Below are positions 55,517-63,926 of a stretch of 64,000 nt of DNA, in pieces. Source of the stretch: Desulfomicrobium sp. (GTDB taxonomy: Bacteria > Desulfobacterota > Desulfovibrionia > Desulfovibrionales > Desulfomicrobiaceae); contig JAXGMI010000002.1 of NCBI GenBank assembly GCA_040768745.1, positions 860,125-924,124 of the forward strand. The letters are read 5' to 3'. Made by a program: the position numbers and the translations under genes. Under the pieces are notes generated by a model that saw only the letters and a list, made by a program, of their open reading frames with translations, was not told the origin of the DNA and searched no databases. How positions within the stretch are numbered: position 1 is the stretch's first letter; each line of letters starts with the position of its first letter.

Positions 55517-57568
55517 TCATTCCCTGCCTGCGGGCAGCCTGACCGTGAACGTCGAGCCCTCTCCCACAACGCTCCTCACCTCGATCCGCCCGCCATGGGC
55601 CTCCACGATCTGCTTGCACTGATACAGACCGATGCCCATGCCCTTGGCCTTGGTGGACTTGAACGGCTCGAACAGCCCCCCTCTGATGAACTCCTCGGCT
55701 ATGCCCGCCCCCCGGTCCGTGACCCGCAGAAAGGGTTCCGCGGCCATGCCCACCGTGACGACCACGGGTTGGCCTTCTGCCGACGCCTCCAAGGCGTTGA
55801 GGCAGAGGTTGAGGACCACCTTGCCCATCTCCTCGCCGTCGACCATGACCTCTACGTCCTGGCCCTCGAAAAGCAGGCGCTCCTGGCGCAGCAGCCGGGT
55901 GGACTCCCGGGCCAGGCTCAGGAGCCCCACGGGAGCGCGCTTCAGGGTCTGCCGCTCGGGCAGGCCCTTGAGCTGGGAAATGAGGATTTTCATCTTGCCC
56001 ACGGTGCTGCCCAGGGAATCCACCAGGTCCTTCTGGAATTCCGGGTTGCCGATGAACTTGCGGGCGTTGTCGACCATGAGGGACAGGGTGTAGACGTGGT
56101 TCTTCAGGTCGTGGACCACAAAGGCCGAGACCTTGCCCATGATCTCCATCTCCCGCGAGCGGGCCAGCTGCTCCGTGAGGCGCATGTTCAGCAGGGCCGA
56201 GGAGATGTGCCGGGCCATGGTGTTCATCAGCTCGAAGTCCTCCTCGTCGTACTCCTCCTGCGGGTTGATGGACGGCCCCAGGAGCACGAACCCGTCCAGG
56301 TTCTCCTCCCGCAGGAGGGGAATGGCAAAACCGGCCCCCTCCAGCCAGTCCGACGTCTCCGCCATGCCTGAGGCGCGGACCACGGACCGCTGGCTTTTCA
56401 GCTGGGAGGCCAGGACCGACTCCTCGCCGAACACCCCTTCCCTGGAGTCCATCTCCACCAGGCTGGCCGGGACATAGGCCCGGCTGGAATGATCGTACAG
56501 AAAGAGGGCCGCCCCCACAATGCCGAAGGTCTCGCAGCAGGCCGACAAGGCCGCCTGGCGCAGTTCATCCTGGGTGCGGACAGAACTCAGCCTGTCCATG
56601 AACTGCGCCCACTGGATGCGGTAGTCGTATTTCTCGCCGTAGAAATGCAGCTGCAGGAAGAGGCGGATCCTGCGCTGCAACCGGTCCGAGAGGAAGACAA
56701 CGACCAGGCCCAGCCCGGACAGAAAGCTCACGCCCAAAAGCACGGCCCGCCCCAGCTCCTCGCCCAGGATGCGCACCCCCTCGCCCATGAGCCCCAGGCC
56801 CACCAGGTAGAGACCCGTCACGGCCAGGACCACGGACTTGATGGCCATCCTCCTGGAGAAGCTGATCCTGACTTCCGGCCCCCGCCGCAGGTCCGAATAC
56901 CACATGAGCAGGGCGCCCAGGAGCAGGGCCAGGGAGCGCAGACCGGCCAGGCGCATGTCGATGGATCGGTACAGGAGCCCCTGGCTGAAATAGAGGAGTT
57001 GGGAGGCCAGCACGCACACGGCCCCCAGCAGGATGAACTTGATCTTCCAGCGCCGGAAATGCACGGCCCCGGCCAGGGTGGCTTCGATGTTGACCAGGGC
57101 CGCCACGCAGCACAGCGACAGGGCGATGTAGAAATAGAAGGACCCGGGCAGCAGGAAGAGGACCTGCTCGGTGTCGAAATCCGGGGTAAAGTAGGCTCCG
57201 GTGGCAGCCAGGAACCCGGCCCAGGCCGGCATGAGGGCGGACAGCGCAATGAGTCCGCGCTGGGTCCAGGGCAGGCGGCCCTCCTCGTAGTCCCGGGCGA
57301 ACAGGGCCGTGAACCAGACCCAGGCCGGAGCCAGGGCGCCTTCGACCACGAGCCCGGCCTGCCGCCATGCCTGCATGTCCATGGGATTGAGCATGGTCAG
57401 CAGGTCCAGAATCTCCAAGGCGGCCACCAGGGTCAGGGCCAGGGCCAGCACGCCCGATGCCCTGGAGCGCTCCCCTCGCACGAGGCCGCGAACCATGCGC
57501 GCGGCGAAGCCCAAGGCGACGATGACGGCGGCAAAAGTGGCCAGAGTGGAATGAATGGGAATGGTCAT
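55517..57568 (-). CDS. prsK: PEP-CTERM system histidine kinase
   Basis: Multi-TM N-terminus, KYDYR..W, GAF domain, SAFVVHDLKN, LFEPFKSTK..GMGIGLYQ. Confidence 0.93.
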   Translation of the reverse strand: MTIPIHSTLATFAAVIVALGFAARMVRGLVRGERSRASGVLALALTLVAALEILDLLTMLNPMDMQAWRQAGLVVEGALAPAWVWFTALFARDYEEGRLPWTQRGLIALSALMPAWAGFLAATGAYFTPDFDTEQVLFLLPGSFYFYIALSLCCVAALVNIEATLAGAVHFRRWKIKFILLGAVCVLASQLLYFSQGLLYRSIDMRLAGLRSLALLLGALLMWYSDLRRGPEVRISFSRRMAIKSVVLAVTGLYLVGLGLMGEGVRILGEELGRAVLLGVSFLSGLGLVVVFLSDRLQRRIRLFLQLHFYGEKYDYRIQWAQFMDRLSSVRTQDELRQAALSACCETFGIVGAALFLYDHSSRAYVPASLVEMDSREGVFGEESVLASQLKSQRSVVRASGMAETSDWLEGAGFAIPLLREENLDGFVLLGPSINPQEEYDEEDFELMNTMARHISSALLNMRLTEQLARSREMEIMGKVSAFVVHDLKNHVYTLSLMVDNARKFIGNPEFQKDLVDSLGSTVGKMKILISQLKGLPERQTLKRAPVGLLSLARESTRLLRQERLLFEGQDVEVMVDGEEMGKVVLNLCLNALEASAEGQPVVVTVGMAAEPFLRVTDRGAGIAEEFIRGGLFEPFKSTKAKGMGIGLYQCKQIVEAHGGRIEVRSVVGEGSTFTVRLPAGRE

Positions 57569-57628
57569 GCTGAAAGGAGGTGCCCCGCGCTGTTGAAGTC
57601 CGAAAAATGGGTGGTCAGATCAGGCGAT

Positions 57629-57730
57629 ACTGCAAAAAGCCGCAAATGCGTCTGCGTGTCATCCCTTTCAGACAGTTGAAAAGTCCATACATGGATCCCC
57701 TTCTCCAAGAGGATGACGACTTTTTGCAGT
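57629..57730. repeat. Degenerate REP-type palindromic element
   Basis: ACTGCAAAAAG...CTTTTTGCAGT ends enclosing GTCATCCC...ATGGATCCCC...GGATGAC, related to the REP at 25851. Confidence 0.6.
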
Positions 57731-57781
57731 CAGGTCAGATTATGCAATGCCCATGCCTGCGAACACAACTGATTCCGATTA

Positions 57782-57819
57782 TGCATAACGCTCTTTGCGC
57801 TGTCCATGGTCTGGTCAAA
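57782..57819 (+). repeat. Sub-terminal segment X, copy 1
   Basis: 30/38 ungapped identity with 60018-60055 (TGCATAACG-N12-TCCATGGTCTGG-NN-AAA). Confidence 0.75.
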
Positions 57820-57871
57820 CAGAAAAACCCGCAGCATGGATTCGGGACAACTCGGGCAGCCAGAAATGAAG

Positions 57872-57905
57872 ATTCAAGACCTCGGTCCTTTTGATGGGTG
57901 AGCCC
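57872..57905 (+). repeat. Cassette-boundary motif 1
   Basis: ATTCAAGACCTCGGTCCTTTTGATGG-GTGAGCCC; 20-mer 57878-57897 identical at 59239 and 61067. Confidence 0.85.
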
Positions 57906-57921
57906 TTTTTTGCCTCATATT

Positions 57922-57966
57922 TTTTTCCATACCAATCTTGACGGTATGGAAAAATATCCATACCAT
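57922..57966 (+). promoter_or_regulatory. hicAB sigma-70 promoter with palindromic operator
   Basis: TTGACG-17-TACCAT overlapped by TTTTTCCATACC/GGTATGGAAAAA and GGTATGGA/TCCATACC inverted repeats. Confidence 0.7.
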
Positions 57967-57994
57967 TTCTTTCAACAATATTTGAGGTGGCGGC

Positions 57995-58176
57995 ATGAAG
58001 AGAAAGGATATCCTGAAGAGGCTGGCGATAGAGGGTTCACGTTTCAGGAAGGTGGAAGCCACACCAAGGCATATGATTGTCATGGCATCTTCAGGGCCAT
58101 CATCGGCAGACACACGGAAATTCCGGAAAAGATTGTACGCCAAATCGAAAAACAAACCGGCGTCGAGTTGCATTAA
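57995..58176 (+). pseudogene. hicA: HicA toxin, frameshifted
   Basis: MKRKDILKRLAIEG joins FTFQEGGSHTKAY...GRHTEIPEKIVRQIEKQTG only if 1 nt is restored near 58031-58036; GSH motif. Confidence 0.85.
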
Positions 58177-58188
58177 AAGGAGGGCGTC

Positions 58189-58629
58189 ATGGCCTATTAT
58201 TTTCTGGTTTTCTTGCCTGTCGTTGAGGGCGGGTATGCCATTGTATCTCCTGATTTTCCTGAAATTACGTCGCAAGGGGATACTCTGGATGAATGCATGA
58301 CCATGGGAGCCGATGCGTTGGCCATTGTGTCCGAAGAGTACGCCAAGGCGCGCAGACCGCTACCGGAACCATCCAATATGGCCCAGGCCCGGGCCTTTGC
58401 CGCGAGCGAAACAGACGAAAGTGTTGACCCGCACCGCGAACCGGTCTTGCAGCTCATTCAAGCTCCGAACGCGGACATGACCCCGGTCAAGATATCCATC
58501 AGCCTACCCAAGGCTGACCTGGAAGCAATTGACGCCAAGGCACGCCGACTGGGCATGACCAGGTCCGGCCTCCTGGCCAGTGCCGCCAGAGTGTATCCCG
58601 GAGGACAAGGACGCGGAACCTCTTGCTGA
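58189..58629 (+). CDS. hicB: HicB antitoxin with C-terminal ribbon-helix-helix
   Basis: GGYAIVSPDFPEITSQGDTLDEC...DAL; KISISLP...ID..A...GMTRSGLL. Confidence 0.92.
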   Translation: MAYYFLVFLPVVEGGYAIVSPDFPEITSQGDTLDECMTMGADALAIVSEEYAKARRPLPEPSNMAQARAFAASETDESVDPHREPVLQLIQAPNADMTPVKISISLPKADLEAIDAKARRLGMTRSGLLASAARVYPGGQGRGTSC

Positions 58630-58650
58630 AAATGCCCCTCACGGGGCACG

Positions 58651-58735
58651 AGTGAATGGTGATTGGAAAAATCCTGGCCTGACACCCTGAAGTTTTCTTT
58701 CTTCCCAATCACCAATCACTGTTCACCAATCACCA
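58651..58735. repeat. Heptamer (CCAATCA) tract forming a 16-bp inverted repeat
   Basis: AGTGAATGGTGATTGG (58651-58666) pairs with CCAATCACCAATCACT (58705-58720); period-7 run continues to 58735. Confidence 0.8.
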
Positions 58736-58741
58736 CTCGGC

Positions 58742-58852
58742 ATACCGGTGGTGCGCATCGCGCCCGTGCCGCAGTAGATCATCCCCAAGGGCATCGCCAC
58801 GCCGTGCCTGCTGGCGCAGGTCATCACCGCAAAATTCTTCGACGCCATGCCG
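58742..58852 (+). pseudogene. IS66-family transposase remnant
   Basis: Translates IPVVRIAPVPQ*IIPKGIATPCLLAQVITAKFFDAMP, resembling the TnpC P..IPK..ATP.LLA.V...KF segment, with an in-frame stop. Confidence 0.7.
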
Positions 58853-59188
58853 CATGCATGTGAATTTGGATGCGGTGGGGAACCAGCATTGGATTTGGCA
58901 TAACCATGAGATTTGATTGGCAGCCAGCGCTTCCAGCTTTTCGGATGACTTTGTTTCGTCGACCACGACATGAGACAGCAACGGGTTGGTTCGCAACCAT
59001 GAGATCTGTAACAACACTTTGGACATGGCGTGGGATCGAAGATTATCTGGCCGTCGCAAGACGGTGGGGCGGCTCCGGCGGCCTAGATCCTGATGGGTGA
59101 CTGGTGCGGCGAAATACGCCAACACGCAATACTGATAATTCGAGAAAGGCAGAAAGCAAAGAAATCCGAGGCGTTATCCAGTGGTTTT

Positions 59189-59285
59189 TCCCGAGGCGAG
59201 AAAACCTGATTTCCTGGCCCGAAGGAGCACTTTCTCTTGACCTCGGTCCTTTTGATGGCTGACCCCATGCCACGCTCCTGGCCCC
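59189..59285 (+). repeat. Segment Y copy 1 plus boundary motif 2 (CTGACCCC, CTGGCCCC)
   Basis: 59189-59258 is 69/70 identical to 61017-61086; followed by CTGACCCCATGC and ACGCTCCTGGCCCC. Confidence 0.92.
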
Positions 59286-59298
59286 ATACCTGTCGCCC

Positions 59299-59636
59299 TC
59301 AACTTTCCAGACAGCCGACGGCTCGACAGATTTCCTTGTGGACCTTAGCGAATGCTTCGGAATTGAGGGCTCCGAATCGGGCGACGACGCAATCTCTGTT
59401 CAATGTGTAGAGCTTCGAAACCCTGACCCAGCTTGTCTTAGGCAATTCTCCTTCAGCCAGATCATTTGCGGATAAGATCAAACCATCCTCGTGCCCGGCC
59501 TGAGAAGTGATTGCGGCGGCAAGAAAGTCTCCGAACCCGTCGCAGGATCTCAAACGAGAACCGGCCTACGCTTGGCCGCCTGCTTGTCTGAAAACGGAAA
59601 AGGAATGAGAACCACCTCACCTGGATGCAACGTCAT
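59299..59636 (-). pseudogene. PemK/MazF-family toxin, frameshifted
   Basis: MTLHPGEVVLIPFPFSDKQAAKRRPVLV then TGA; continues (L)RSCDGFGDFLAAAITS...LPKTSWVRVSKLYTL if one T is restored at ~59552. Confidence 0.88.
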
Positions 59637-59820
59637 TCCAAACCTCATCGTCCTCGTTGCCCCAAACCCTATCCATACTGCCCTGCTGCGCAGCCATGAC
59701 ATTCCTTTCGCCTTGGTCCTGGGCCTTGTAGCGCAGGTACTCAATGAAGCGAAGGGCCTCTAGAGCATACTCATCCGGTAACGGCTTAACGCTTTTATAT
59801 ATTTCCTTCGCAAGATTCAC
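59617..59820 (-). CDS. DUF2281-like antitoxin
   Basis: LPDEYALEALRFIEYL and acidic W-rich tail VWGNEDDEVWND; overlaps toxin start; likely GTG start. Confidence 0.75.
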   Translation of the reverse strand: MNLAKEIYKSVKPLPDEYALEALRFIEYLRYKAQDQGERNVMAAQQGSMDRVWGNEDDEVWNDVASR

Positions 59821-60017
59821 TTTCTCCCCCAAGTGGACAACTTCCCGCACCATCGTGACCTTCTAACCACCAATAATCTGACGACAAGCCCCGCGCCGCC
59901 AAAGACCCGTTAAAATGCTCGCCCATAAGTCCCGACTTCCCCGGGTTCAGACGAACTCCAGCACTCAGCAGGCGCATGGCGGAGATCATTTCAACAAAAG
60001 GATCATTGATATCTTAT

Positions 60018-60117
60018 TGCATAACGTTATCTGAGGTATCCATGGTCTGGGTAAAGGCAAGATAAGTCAATAGGAGACTTGACCCCATGCTCTTGTGTGA
60101 CCCCACGCTCCTGCCCC
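60018..60117 (+). repeat. Segment X copy 2 plus stacked boundary motif 3
   Basis: X copy at 60018-60055; TTGACCCCATGCTC (60079) and GTGACCCCACGCTC (60097), then CTGCCCC. Confidence 0.8.
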
Positions 60118-60218
60118 TCTGCCTTCCCCATCCCCTACCGCTGCGCAGTCTTGCCGATTGTCCATCCGTAGCGTAAGTCACTGAGAAATTGCACCCCATA
60201 ACCCAAAAGGGGGGAAAC

Positions 60219-60527
60219 GTGATTCTTGAAGGAAAGTTTGGGGTACCTGAAGGGGAAATCCGGTCGCTGTGCGAGAAATTCCGTATCCGCAGGCTTTCGC
60301 TTTTCGGTTCCGCGCTTCATGACTCCATGAAGGCCGAAAGCGACATCGATCTCCTTGCCGAATTCGAACCGGGACATGTGCCCGGACTGATCTCCATGGC
60401 GAAAATTCAGAATGCGTTCAGCGAACTCCTTGGCCGTCCTGTGGACCTGCGCACCCCGAACGATCTGAGCCCTCTTTTCCGTGAAGCCGTCCTTCATGAG
60501 GCGCAGGCACAATATGCATCCTCATGA
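60219..60527 (+). CDS. Minimal nucleotidyltransferase antitoxin (MntA-like)
   Basis: LFGS-X10-DID motif, LLGRPVDL; upstream of a HEPN gene. Confidence 0.9.
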   Translation: MILEGKFGVPEGEIRSLCEKFRIRRLSLFGSALHDSMKAESDIDLLAEFEPGHVPGLISMAKIQNAFSELLGRPVDLRTPNDLSPLFREAVLHEAQAQYASS

Positions 60528-60898
60528 CCTGAACCACATCCGGCATATGCTCCAGGCTGCCACACCGAAGCATAATCACACATATTTCGGAAATCTTGAT
60601 TAATTTTTGAGGCCGTTCAAAAAACGTTTTGGCAAGGCGCAAGCCGATTTTGAAGAGCGAGGTGTAGCCAACTACATGAACTCTTCAAAATCGGTGAGCA
60701 ACGCAGTCCAGAACGGATTTTTCAACGATCTCGTACGAACACATTCCATGGCACGCCATAATCACAATGCACCATCGACACGTGCATGGCTATTTTGACA
60801 TTGACCACGAAGTCGTCTGGCAAACTCTCTTGCCGGATATTTCGATTCTTCTCCGCCAACTCGAAGAGGTCATGGCGACATCCGAAAACCCAAAGTAA
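60514..60898 (+). pseudogene. HEPN/DUF86 (HepT-like) toxin, interrupted and decayed
   Basis: N-terminal MHPHDLNHIRHMLQAA (60514-60561); C-terminal YEHIPWHAIITMHHRHVHGYFDIDHEVVWQT...* (60734-60898); middle replaced; Rx4HxY arginine lost. Confidence 0.82.
60609..60732. mobile_element. 124-bp palindromic MITE-like element inside the HEPN gene
   Basis: Imperfect terminal IRs GAGGCCGTTCAAAAA/TTTTTCAACGATCTC; internal perfect IR CCGATTTTGAAGAG/CTCTTCAAAATCGG. Confidence 0.7.
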
Positions 60899-61016
60899 CG
60901 GATCACGCAGGTTTGACTACAAACCAGAAACCGGGACGAGATCTGGACCATGGATGTGGCGGTCGGAAGCAAGGCATTCGTGGCCTCAGTGACTTCCTGA
61001 ACCGACGGCGCAAGCA

Positions 61017-61107
61017 TCCCGAGGCGAGAAAACCTGATTTTCTGGCCCGAAGGAGCACTTTCTCTTGACCTCGGTCCTTTTGATGGTTGGACCCCACCGC
61101 TGACCGC
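61017..61107 (+). repeat. Segment Y copy 2 plus boundary motif 4
   Basis: 69/70 identity with 59189-59258; followed by TTGGACCCC and CTGACCGC. Confidence 0.92.
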
Positions 61108-61130
61108 ACAGCCTGTTTTGGGGCGGCCTG

Positions 61131-61538
61131 CTACGGCGCTATGAGTGCAAGCCTCGGGAAATACGAACGGTATCGGGTCGCATCGCGAGTCAAAAGGGGC
61201 ATCCCTTGCACGAGAGCGTGGGCTCCGATAAAAAAATCAGGCAGCGGTGAGCGCCGGGCTCTGCCGGCGCGCCGATAGGCGAGAAAACATTTGCCAGCCA
61301 GGAACGCGGCTTCCCACGGCAGGGAACAGCGCTCGAAAATCTCCGCGGGCAACGACTCTTCGAGCTCCTCCACCCGATTGAACCCTATGGAAACTTCTGC
61401 GTAGATTATCGGATTGATCACCAGCCTTGAATCCTCGGCGCATTGCGCAAGGTGTTTTGATGACCAGTCGCACCACACCGGGTCTTGTTCGAGGATATCA
61501 AGGAGCACATTGCTGTCGACCAGCACCTGATTGCTCAT
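61131..61538 (-). CDS. vapC: VapC-family PIN-domain toxin (intact)
   Basis: VLVDSNVLLD, IIYAEVS, PLPDFFIGAHA, LLTRD acidic tetrad. Confidence 0.9.
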   Translation of the reverse strand: MSNQVLVDSNVLLDILEQDPVWCDWSSKHLAQCAEDSRLVINPIIYAEVSIGFNRVEELEESLPAEIFERCSLPWEAAFLAGKCFLAYRRAGRARRSPLPDFFIGAHALVQGMPLLTRDATRYRSYFPRLALIAP

Positions 61539-61771
61539 GAGTCGCCTCGTGTTAAGGCCATGATTTCATCGGTCGACATGCGGACGGTAGCGCGGCCGCG
61601 CATGCGGTCAATGACCTTCTTGCCACGTCCGTTCGTATTCGCGACTTTTCTCAGGACAACCACATTACCCTCCACCACAAATTCAACCTCCGAATGTGGC
61701 AACAGGCCCATTTTGTCTCGAATTTCCTGGGGTATTGTCACCTGCCCTTTCGTGGTGATTTTCATATCCAT
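61535..61771 (-). CDS. AbrB/MazE/SpoVT-family antitoxin
   Basis: KITTKGQVTIPQEIRDKMGL...VEF; ATGA overlap with vapC. Confidence 0.92.
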   Translation of the reverse strand: MDMKITTKGQVTIPQEIRDKMGLLPHSEVEFVVEGNVVVLRKVANTNGRGKKVIDRMRGRATVRMSTDEIMALTRGDS

Positions 61772-61796
61772 GCCCCCTTAAGTAAGAATAAAAAAA

Positions 61797-61825
61797 GTAT
61801 TACTATTGAAGAAACCCCATGTCAA
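61797..61825 (-). promoter_or_regulatory. Sigma-70 promoter of the AbrB-VapC pair
   Basis: Minus strand TTGACA-17-TAATAC. Confidence 0.65.
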
Positions 61826-61970
61826 GTATGCAACGCAGGCAGGGAGAAGCCGCCAGCAAGTAAGTAAAGCCAGAGGAAAATCTGACCACTTTTCGATCTG
61901 TCTGGCTGCAAGCGTCGGGCAGAGTCTGGATATGCTCGTGATCTCAGAGCCATGGCCACTCAGGCAGTCA

Positions 61971-62003
61971 AAATTCAAGGTTCAAGATCTGACCCCAGGC
62001 TCC
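61971..62003 (+). repeat. Boundary motif 5
   Basis: AAATTCAAGGTTCAAGATCTGACCCCAGGCTCC; compare ATTCAAGACCT at motif 1 and TGACCCCACGCTCC at motif 3. Confidence 0.8.
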
Positions 62004-62441
62004 ACGCGCACTTATCAAGAAAAAACAAATGAAATTCCAGATAATTATTTTGATTTAGTTGTATGCAACGACGTCATCGAGCATATGGCAGATCATGATT
62101 ATTTTTTTAAATCCATAAAACAAAAAATATCACATAACGGATTTCTAGTCTTCTCAATTCCGAACGTGAGATATCATAAAAATTTATACAATCTGATTGT
62201 AAATAAAGATTGGAAATATGAAGACATCGGAATATTAGATAATACTCATTTAAGATTTTTTACAAAAAAAAGCATCCTTAGGACTGTCGATCACCATGGC
62301 TTTACTATCGAAGATTGCATAGGGATCAATGATTATTGGTTTAAAAAATTCTGGGAACGCTGTGTATATTTCGTTGCCAGAACAACTCTCGGTGAAGATA
62401 TCAAATATCTTCAATTTGGAATTCGATTAAAAAAATCATGA
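62004..62441 (+). pseudogene. 5'-truncated class I SAM-dependent methyltransferase (AT-rich)
   Basis: YFDLVVCNDVIEH, GFLVFSIPNV, GILDNTHLRFFT present; motif I (DxGxGxG) and a start are missing; homology begins right after motif 5. Confidence 0.78.
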
Positions 62442-62463
62442 AGAATGGGCTCAGACGACTTAT

Positions 62464-63096
62464 TCAAGACGGCAGATACTCCCGGAAAAGTGGGTAGAAA
62501 TCCCTCAGGAAATCCTCGACCCGTCTGTTGGCCGCATCCACATTGCCCTTGGCCTGGACAGAGATCCGAATGAAACTCTGGTCGCGACGGTTGTGAAACA
62601 TAGAACCGGTGATCTCTGCCAGTTTGAGGGAATATTCGTCGGACATGGTTGTCCCACGCATGTAGAACCAGTAATAGATCAGTTCCCGCTGCTCACCCAT
62701 GGCATAGAGTGCCCGGACCAGGTTGACCTGCTCTCCTCCCAGTTCCCTGACCGTACGTTCGGATGACATCTCGAACCATCCGCTGCCCGGCAGACAATGC
62801 TTGGGGGAATGGATGCCGCCGGTGTCCGGGCCGCCGTCGAAGAAACTCAGGTACATGTCCACCGTTGTCCCATCCGGCGCCACATAGCGTCGAGACAGAT
62901 AATCCGTGGGCATGAGCACCTTGATGACATTGTCGCTCAAGGATGACTGCCCGACCATGCGCCATCCATTATGGACCGGGGGGAATTCGCTGAATGGTTT
63001 GGCCAAGGGTACGATCAGGTCGCGATGGAAGCTCATGTACGCGGCCATACCGGCCAACAAGACATAGAGAACGAGAAATCGGAAGCGGAGATTCAT
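62464..63096 (-). CDS. epsI: Exosortase-associated EpsI family protein
   Basis: IHSPKHCLPGSGW, YYWF; coupled to the exosortase gene. Confidence 0.9.
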   Translation of the reverse strand: MNLRFRFLVLYVLLAGMAAYMSFHRDLIVPLAKPFSEFPPVHNGWRMVGQSSLSDNVIKVLMPTDYLSRRYVAPDGTTVDMYLSFFDGGPDTGGIHSPKHCLPGSGWFEMSSERTVRELGGEQVNLVRALYAMGEQRELIYYWFYMRGTTMSDEYSLKLAEITGSMFHNRRDQSFIRISVQAKGNVDAANRRVEDFLRDFYPLFREYLPS

Positions 63097-63926
63097 GACC
63101 ACCTCTTCAAACTGGTGCCAAGAAGTACAAACATGACCACGGCCGCGCCGAACACAAACAGTCCTGCAAATTCATGAAAAAAGCCCTCGGCGGCCGCCGA
63201 GCCGAAATACTGGGCCAGGATGCCCGTGGCTATGACGCGCAGACAGTTGGTGAAAATGGCGATGGGCAGGGTCGCGAGAATGAGAATGACCCGATCCCTT
63301 ATCTTGGCGTGCAGCACAAAGGCGTAGGCCGCGCCCAGGGCCAGCAGGGACATGATGGAGCGCAGGCCGCTGCAGGCGTCGGCGACCTCAAGGGTGATGT
63401 TCGGGAACATGAGAATATTGCCCTCTTGGAGCACCACGATGCCCAAGGCCTTCATGCTCAGAACCGAAACTTTGGTGACGAACAGCTTAAGGGGGAAGGC
63501 CGCTGCGTCGTAGATGATATACGGAATGGGCACCATGAGCAGCAGGTAGCACAGAGGGGCCAGCAGGATCTTGAATATTTCCCATCCCAGCAGATAGAGC
63601 ACCGATCCGGCCACGATGATGACCAGGGAGGAGCGCATGGTAAAATATTCCGTGCCCAGCCACCCGAGAAAAAGCACGCCAAGGCCCATGACGATAATGG
63701 CAAGTCCGGAATTGCTGGGCCGGACCACGGCTGCCACAAGATCATCCTTCCGCATGTAGGCCAGATACCCGGCGATGAACGGCACAAGGAAGCCGTGAGA
63801 ATAGTTGTCGTCCTTTTGCCAGTCGAGAATCATCTCGAAGACGATGGAATGGTACACGGCCCCAAGGAGCAGAAGCAGGGCGAGTAACTCGAACCTGTGT
63901 TTCAGCAGGGTTTGAACAAGGGTCAT
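63093..63926 (-). CDS. xrtA: Exosortase (EpsH/XrtA type)
   Basis: DDNYSHGFLVP, VADACSGLRS (Cys), NCLRV (Arg), FFHEFAG (His). Confidence 0.92.
   Translation of the reverse strand: MTLVQTLLKHRFELLALLLLLGAVYHSIVFEMILDWQKDDNYSHGFLVPFIAGYLAYMRKDDLVAAVVRPSNSGLAIIVMGLGVLFLGWLGTEYFTMRSSLVIIVAGSVLYLLGWEIFKILLAPLCYLLLMVPIPYIIYDAAAFPLKLFVTKVSVLSMKALGIVVLQEGNILMFPNITLEVADACSGLRSIMSLLALGAAYAFVLHAKIRDRVILILATLPIAIFTNCLRVIATGILAQYFGSAAAEGFFHEFAGLFVFGAAVVMFVLLGTSLKRWS

Follow-up and report, generated by a model that had tools for sequence, protein, structure and literature searches.

The window, a stretch of 64,000 nucleotides from Desulfomicrobium sp. (contig JAXGMI010000002.1, positions 860,125 to 924,124), carries an array of four toxin-antitoxin (TA) pairs (HicAB, PemK/DUF2281, MNT/HEPN and VapBC) and a truncated methyltransferase gene between prsK-like and epsI genes (57782..62441). 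On balance, this array is probably a pile of solo ends of TIRtrons, remnants of an IS1111-type insertion sequence (IS) and TA pairs, built in trans by TIRYT, the Y1/HUH transposase of the TIRtrons, through one-ended joins 9-11 nt outside the TGACCC core of the terminal inverted repeats (TIRs). The reading is carried by the identity of the ends, the offset of the joins, the lack of a landing consensus, a replication-strand bias and a breakpoint in conspecific DNA at the last TIR. TIRtrons and TIRYT were named in 2013, with the TIR motif GGGGWSAS (Di Nocera et al., PMC3733652). TIRYT is TnpA-Y1 subclass 2.1 (Quentin et al. 2018, PMC6006769), the second largest TnpA-REP-like class in that survey.

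An earlier note on this DNA had placed four TA pairs and a cut methyltransferase gene in tandem amid same-strand sites of the TGACCCC type, and this layout is borne out, with all of the listed motifs at their plus-strand coordinates. Its suggestion of a Y1/HUH (RAYT-like) origin of the sites also holds, as they are ends of TIRYT elements with intact genes elsewhere in the genome. Sites are present at the junctions, but they do not represent one related motif: they have three origins, a type-a TIR, a type-b TIR and the right end of an IS1111-type element. The junctions of what had been taken for an integron-like array are thus the ends of known elements. The proposed A-n-GCTC consensus is confined to this array, and bare TGACCCC, for which enrichment had been expected, was dropped as a signal because it occurs 618 times genome-wide against 635 expected; the significance therefore lies in longer motifs. 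A 20-mer has four exact copies in the 3.09-Mb genome, three of them inside the array, and TGACCCCAnGCTC has three copies, every one in the array.

Site 5 (61974-61996) differs by one mismatch from the inverted ends of five elements of ~0.9 kb in the source genome that contain a Y1/HUH gene. In two of these type-a TIRtrons the gene is intact and in three it is frameshifted, possibly through assembly error. [quoted passage not shown] All three intact TIRYT genes lie away from the array and no Y1/HUH transposase gene was found inside it, so any action there would be in trans. PF01797 was detected in the gene at C1:429655, which encodes 281 amino acids, and in that at C1:899102, both intact; the gene at C2:641865 has 99% identity along the full length. 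The type-a TIR is GGGGTCAG and the type-b TIR GGGGTCAA, the final base of which departs from the GGGGWSAS consensus. Sites 3 and 5 are solo copies of type b and type a, respectively, and the site 3 motif bounds Y1 and Bac_DnaA_C genes in genomes G024, G020 and G015. The C-terminal helix-turn-helix (HTH) is Bac_DnaA_C in type b and HTH_23/28 in a type-a homolog of G013; the type-a protein of the source genome had no HTH match at E<=1e-4. As DNA, the array junctions fold weakly (-1 to -10 kcal/mol), and no GTAG hairpin stem of the repetitive extragenic palindrome (REP) type was found at them. One TIRtron splits a NERD gene. All 8 of the 8 relatives compared have this gene whole, and a 10-bp duplication is present outside the flanks carried by the element; the interruption shows that the TIRtron has moved.

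Sites 1, 2 and 4 are the final 23, 400 and 71 nt of an element of the IS110 superfamily, followed by the remainder of a TIR. The 20-mer is the right end of this IS1111-type element, which inserts at the TGA of TIRs; three complete copies in G024 lie within type-a TIRs at the TGA, and the parent element there encodes a DEDD transposase of 339 amino acids (PF01548 and PF02371). Of 80 relatives, which include several from the same genome, 55 yielded a right end, followed by G(A/T)CCC in 36, and 48 a left end, preceded by RGAYYT in 24; both ends conform in 13 of 31. The closest named matches of the element point to Desulfomicrobium as the probable host genus. No intact copy remains in the source genome, and the transposase has been lost. 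By eye, the inverted repeats are subterminal, imperfect and about 12 bp long, with 6-7 nt outside them at the left end and 2-3 nt at the right. A non-coding region of ~400 nt downstream of the transposase gene is conserved in 10 aligned copies, and its conserved motifs match both target strands and the donor junction; judged from the sequence, they would guide targeting. The single-sequence fold of the region equals that of shuffles (z=0.18), and no match to an Rfam family was found. In the region (window 58861-59259; L096-L109) two tandem target-matching hairpin units can be discerned, whose central bases partly track the TIR variant at the insertion site. A second IS1111-type element may be represented at TIR stacks by a short piece that resembles its right end (L066:2290-2330; loose ends of metagenome runs X6 and X13).

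In having inverted repeats set in from its ends and a long stretch without genes downstream of the transposase, the element follows the layout described for IS1111, members of which hit the sites of other elements: IS4321/IS5075 the TIRs of Tn21, ISKpn4/ISPst6 attC and ISPa11 REP (PMC11187229). These IS share with the present element the DEDD transposase, the subterminal repeats, the non-coding region and site-specific insertion, and differ from it in the target, which here is the TIRYT TIR core. The literature searched (listings, abstracts and parts of papers, with supplements, most subscription papers and ISfinder outside the search) yielded no account of an IS that targets TIRYT TIR ends.

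Joins were compared across the genus at 118 distinct TIR or IS-split ends, taken from the source genome and from loci chosen for carrying such ends. At 34 of them the DNA beyond the end was traceable to a donor, and the switch occurs 7-14 nt after TGACCC in 21 of the 34, 12 of these at 9-10 nt; the remaining switches are located at 0-5 nt (8) and 18-38 nt (5). In a shift control, 23 of 117 ends fell at 7-14 nt, compared with 2 of 342 and 5 of 347 shams. No landing consensus was found among the traceable ends, and no conserved cut dinucleotide was seen at the joins by eye. A site-specific crossover at TGACCCC, as assumed in the earlier note, does not fit this pattern, in which the joins are about 9-11 nt outside the motif, on unrelated sequence, and the other border of each unit varies. 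The tail between TIR and join is pyrimidine-rich at positions 1 and 5-9 (43-51 of 52). It was considered as a target duplication and rejected as such because it moves with the element, being shared by 4 of 5 right ends, and is absent from the donors. Tails land at many points within the IS1111 body, and there are tandem copies nested within one another whose right border is fixed. At an orthologous pilin locus, the TIR tail of G001 (+9) joins the middle of a GNAT toxin gene that is whole in G015, and the G001 locus is 663 bp shorter. Breakpoints between genomes do follow these ends, in agreement with the earlier expectation. An exception to the +9/+10 rule occurs in the source genome (G000 C1:117183-117636), where a duplicate of the NERD 5' part is edged exactly at the outer TIR boundary, at offset 0.

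The last TIR of the array marks divergence within the population. Parts of the stretch occur in 20 metagenome runs, of which X6, X8, X10 and X13, from four studies, were compared, all as contigs. In all four, near-identical contigs cover the array and divergence sets in at 62006-62008, 11-13 nt past the TGACCC of site 5. One contig of X13 and one of X8 follow the stretch for 860 and 265 nt, respectively, to this point and are unlike it thereafter, and X6 and X10 have at least two loose ends each at the breakpoint. One continuation matches, in 27 of 30 bases by hand comparison, the inside of a flippase gene in the prsK-epsI interval of G021; another matches a piece adjoining a TIRtron end in G008. 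Gaps in contig cover (X6 59308-59541; X8 and X13 beyond 62116) were not read as absence. A metagenome scan with site 5 and its tail gave no match, and a scan with VapC no conspecific contig. The prsK-epsI interval of 11 relatives is empty in 2, holds ~2.2 kb in 6 and 5.5-15 kb of other genes in 3, and contains none of the four modules; these relatives are at species-level distance and hence of no use for exact breakpoints. At a second polysaccharide locus (G000 C1:1080000-1096000, L291; ortholog on C14 of G001, L297), MNT/HEPN-like pairs between gmd/fcl-like genes are followed by a type-b TIR, beyond which the flippase/sugar genes differ between the two species.

The strand reading GGGTCA is the lagging-strand template at 46 of 67 solo ends and, counted by locus, in 14 versus 4, as judged by the G/C skew of the flanks at 29 loci; of the 29, 5 had unclear skew and were set aside, 3 had no solo ends and 3 were tied. 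The orientation of the window itself agrees with this bias. Y1 enzymes of the IS608 type act on the lagging-strand template (PMC6006769). The proposal is that TIRYT nicks the strand with GGGTCA in the inward reading about 10 nt beyond the core, at a time when this strand, serving as lagging-strand template, is single-stranded. The enzyme would retain the 5' end as a phosphotyrosine until any available 3'-OH releases it, a reaction demonstrated for TnpA-REP (PMC8266576). Release by a 3' end that lies past the nick would produce nested tandem copies, seen as stacks, whereas release by one from elsewhere, nascent or foreign, would lead to an adjacent deletion or to the capture of foreign DNA, including polysaccharide genes. 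Each further round would add DNA outside the newest TIR, and the pile would for this reason be polar. On its left, the array has degenerate sites and dead toxins, on its right the intact VapBC and the best TIR, with variable polysaccharide genes beyond. The IS1111 clade, presumably RNA-guided, would insert into the TIR core and then be trimmed by the neighbouring TIR, leaving the 20-mers. TA pairs would be over-represented because selection opposes their loss.

Three of the four toxins are broken, hicA and pemK by frameshifts and the HEPN gene by an interruption. The X8 contigs are identical to the source over these stretches, so the broken genes are not assembly errors. Only VapBC, which adjoins the best-kept TIR, is whole. 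In five genomes and six Pfam families, 17 of 92 TA genes have a TIR no more than 1.5 kb away where 1.4 would be expected, about 12-fold, in a count that omits two weak Polbeta matches and Phd antitoxins adjoining a listed toxin, keeps two weak Phd matches and includes a Polbeta family that may contain non-TA proteins. Among 250 genomes from the order, a single further one has the PemK module at the DNA level, which allowed just one comparison of its borders; the unit is bordered by a type-b TIR here and by a type-a TIR in G001, where a similar PemK-MNT array occupies another polysaccharide locus. Without the source genome and the G001 array, 10 of 80 TA genes are near a TIR. Cargo other than TA genes is found as well. 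A TIR-RelB/ParE-TIRYT-TIR composite is common to G015 (L292:3567-5337) and G001 (L293:3106-4910), with 95% identity, directly after a type IV pilin gene. The type-b TIRtron of the source genome also follows a pilin gene (L005).

Several points weigh against one-ended joining by TIRYT. Only 34 of the 118 ends are traceable, and 13 of the 34 switches fall outside 7-14 nt. The 10-bp duplication stems from a single insertion. The 58738/9 and 58860/1 junctions inside the array have no TIR, and other borders are marked by heptamer repeats. The control for TA enrichment was the whole genome, not other island genes, and 75 of the 92 TA genes are away from any TIR; the reading does not extend to how the TA pairs originally came in. 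Leading-strand orientation is confounded with the direction of transcription, and the skew at each locus was calculated from 20 kb on one side or on both. No TIRYT biochemistry was found in the literature searched, the cut strand and the attacking end being those we infer.

Against this background, the integron-like cassettes of the earlier note were weighed, in which TIRYT would cut two co-oriented TIRs, excise the cargo and one TIR as a circle and reinsert it behind another TIR. Such exchange could account for the order of blocks, B-A-C in G019 and B-X-C-Y-A in G003 with TIRs at most junctions, and for block A lying between co-oriented TIRs also in G015; the G001 array in its different polysaccharide locus and a HipBA module between co-oriented ends in 2 of 5 genomes point the same way. 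However, the sequence between cargo and TIR varies among the HipBA copies, as does the TIR type at the PemK unit, and two array junctions lack a TIR. Close homologs of HicAB (G019), MNT-HEPN (G021) and VapBC (G027) occur without TIRs, and VapBC was rejected as an obligate cassette since a TIR-like motif was found near 3 of 95 VapC relatives, with 1 for the control. Of 43 neighbouring pairs of ends, 30 share an orientation, but 7 of the 30 are halves of one IS-split site, which by hand count leaves 23 of 36, and the strand bias alone could yield co-orientation. No module-skipping joint was seen in the four runs, although contigs lose rare variants and end at repeats and could therefore miss a joint of this kind. 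We consider a reusable cassette-circle system unlikely.

Hardly different in standing, and likewise unlikely, is a passive graveyard, in which a tolerant spot between genes took up whole TIRtrons, IS1111, IS66 and MITEs, host deletion eroded them, and the TA pairs, having arrived by other routes, have no more than the island in common with them. Genomic islands gather TA genes and mobile elements alike, remnants of many unrelated elements are crowded within 4.7 kb, dead toxins make up three of the four, and contigs from four studies give a near-identical array. Host deletion, however, leaves unexplained the sharp +9/+10 offset, the conserved tail, the nested duplications with a fixed right border and the strand bias. 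A fork-stalling or slippage site at TIR and tail (e.g., bound TIRYT), where host template switching or microhomology repair would make the joins without Y1 catalysis, agrees with the few bases shared at some joins (by eye) and the abundant short tandem repeats nearby, but is quite improbable given the narrow offset and the many joins that have no donor match upstream of the switch.

The features of the array and its flanks are listed below. Beyond those of the earlier note, the interval contains heptamer repeats, a fragment of a probable IS66-type transposase and a pair of MITE-like repeats.

Features of the array and its flanks in the window
Feature	Position	Strand	Basis or remark
prsK-like histidine kinase, conserved left flank	55517..57568	-	Pfam, orthologs
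125-bp MITE-like element	57617..57741		partial copies in genome; missing from one X8 contig (joint 57616-57742)
Remnant matching TIR-proximal end of G001 PemK unit, ends in partial type-a TIR	57782..57877	+	homology
Site 1: final 23 nt of IS1111-type right end and degenerate TIR core	57878..57905	+	
hicA, frameshifted (57995-58176), and hicB, intact (58189-58629)	57995..58629	+	Pfam
Heptamer repeats, inverted arrangement	58651..58738		second border class, also in G019 and G001
Internal piece of multicopy transposase	58739..58852	+	10 other copies at 86%
Entire right non-coding region of IS1111-type element, transposase lost	58861..59259	+	91% to G024 element; predicted guide motifs match TIR
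Site 2: TIR core remaining right of IS1111 insertion	59260..59266	+	
DUF2281 antitoxin (59617-59853) and pemK over two frames (59299-59636)	59299..59853	-	Pfam; G001 ortholog intact
Site 3: type-b TIRtron TIR (60062-60086) and stacked partial copy (60097-60110)	60062..60110	+	
MNT antitoxin (to 60527) and HEPN gene split by MITE-like repeat (60608-60735)	60189..60898	+	Pfam; G005 ortholog intact
Site 4: final about 71 nt of IS1111-type right end and degenerate TIR core	61017..61095	+	
Intact vapB (61535-61771) and vapC (61131-61538) with promoter-like site	61131..61825	-	Pfam
Site 5: type-a TIR (61974-61996) and tail	61974..62008	+	population breakpoint 62006-62008
5'-truncated methyltransferase, 31% G+C, fused to TIR tail	62009..62441	+	Pfam
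epsI and exosortase, conserved right flank	62464..63926	-	Pfam, orthologs

Pfam matches were obtained for HicB, PemK, MNT, a HEPN fragment, PIN, MazE/AbrB, the methyltransferase, EpsI, the exosortase and PrsK/PrsR-like proteins; the HicA match is weak (E=0.004) and the DUF2281 score is slightly under the cut-off. Promoters had been claimed for two modules, and promoter-like sites are indeed located upstream of hicA (57938-57966) and vapB (61825-61796). From its sequence features, the transposase fragment at 58739..58852 is probably of the IS66 type. The repeat that splits the HEPN gene is about 128 bp long and has many copies across many genomes of the genus. Tandem repeats of heptamers or octamers occur at TA borders with or without TIRs (window 58651-58738; L039:8100-12900; L040:5100-5900). 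In the prsK-epsI interval of G023 (L029:4730-6040), a reverse-transcriptase-like remnant, by eye of the group II intron type, ends beside TGACCC. In the four runs, few or no contigs cover epsI and the greater part of the exosortase gene (window 62116-63350), and X6 has a loose end at 63351; the dominant strains may carry a divergent epsI/exosortase allele.

Arrays of integrons and CALINs (clusters of attC sites lacking integron integrases) consist of co-oriented short sites between unrelated small genes, are rich in TA pairs and show apparent polarity. The present array resembles them in co-orientation, unrelated small genes, TA richness and apparent polarity, and differs in having no attC-like site, imprecise borders and modules with promoter-like sites of their own. 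The lack of an integron signature asserted earlier was confirmed by a simple scan of 57701-62500, which contained no attC-like (RYYYAAC...GTTRRRY) or dif-like site; the only integron integrase above the cut-off (NCBIfam) is encoded on another contig (C3:63562-64488). In the one-ended transposition of IS91/ISCR, an HUH enzyme acts with one fixed and one variable end. This is the likeness to the present case, in which the enzyme is Y1, not Y2, the two inverted ends are equivalent and no tetranucleotide target was seen. With TnpA-REP (RAYT) and its REP/BIME (bacterial interspersed mosaic element) repeats, the system shares an HUH enzyme that acts in trans on short repeats, a cut outside the motif and transfer to a 3'-OH (PMC8266576), all three being predictions here. 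It departs from TnpA-REP in the lack of a hairpin or GTAG, the lack of a conserved CT at the joins (by eye) and the gene-sized cargo between repeats. TIRtrons as described have in common with the elements of this genome a Y1/HUH gene between GGGGWSAS TIRs, a C-terminal HTH and solo, dimeric and grouped TIRs (PMC3733652, PMC6006769). The available parts of these two papers, their supplements excluded, contain no mechanism or evidence of mobility, tail, join offset, TA cargo, strand bias or IS targeting TIRs, and no description of TIRYT activity was found in the literature searched.

The offset, the tail and the strand bias amount to a precise, testable prediction of where and when TIRYT cuts. 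We put forward more tentatively, as possible but doubtful, the generalization that TIRYTs are fork-coupled HUH end-joiners and that solo TIRs serve as polar capture anchors, which would stack TA and surface-polysaccharide genes without an integrase while an RNA-guided IS1111 clade parasitises the same site. If true, this would name the target of a widespread IS1111 clade and provide a route to ordered gene arrays and to the turnover of surface polysaccharides that escapes integron finders.

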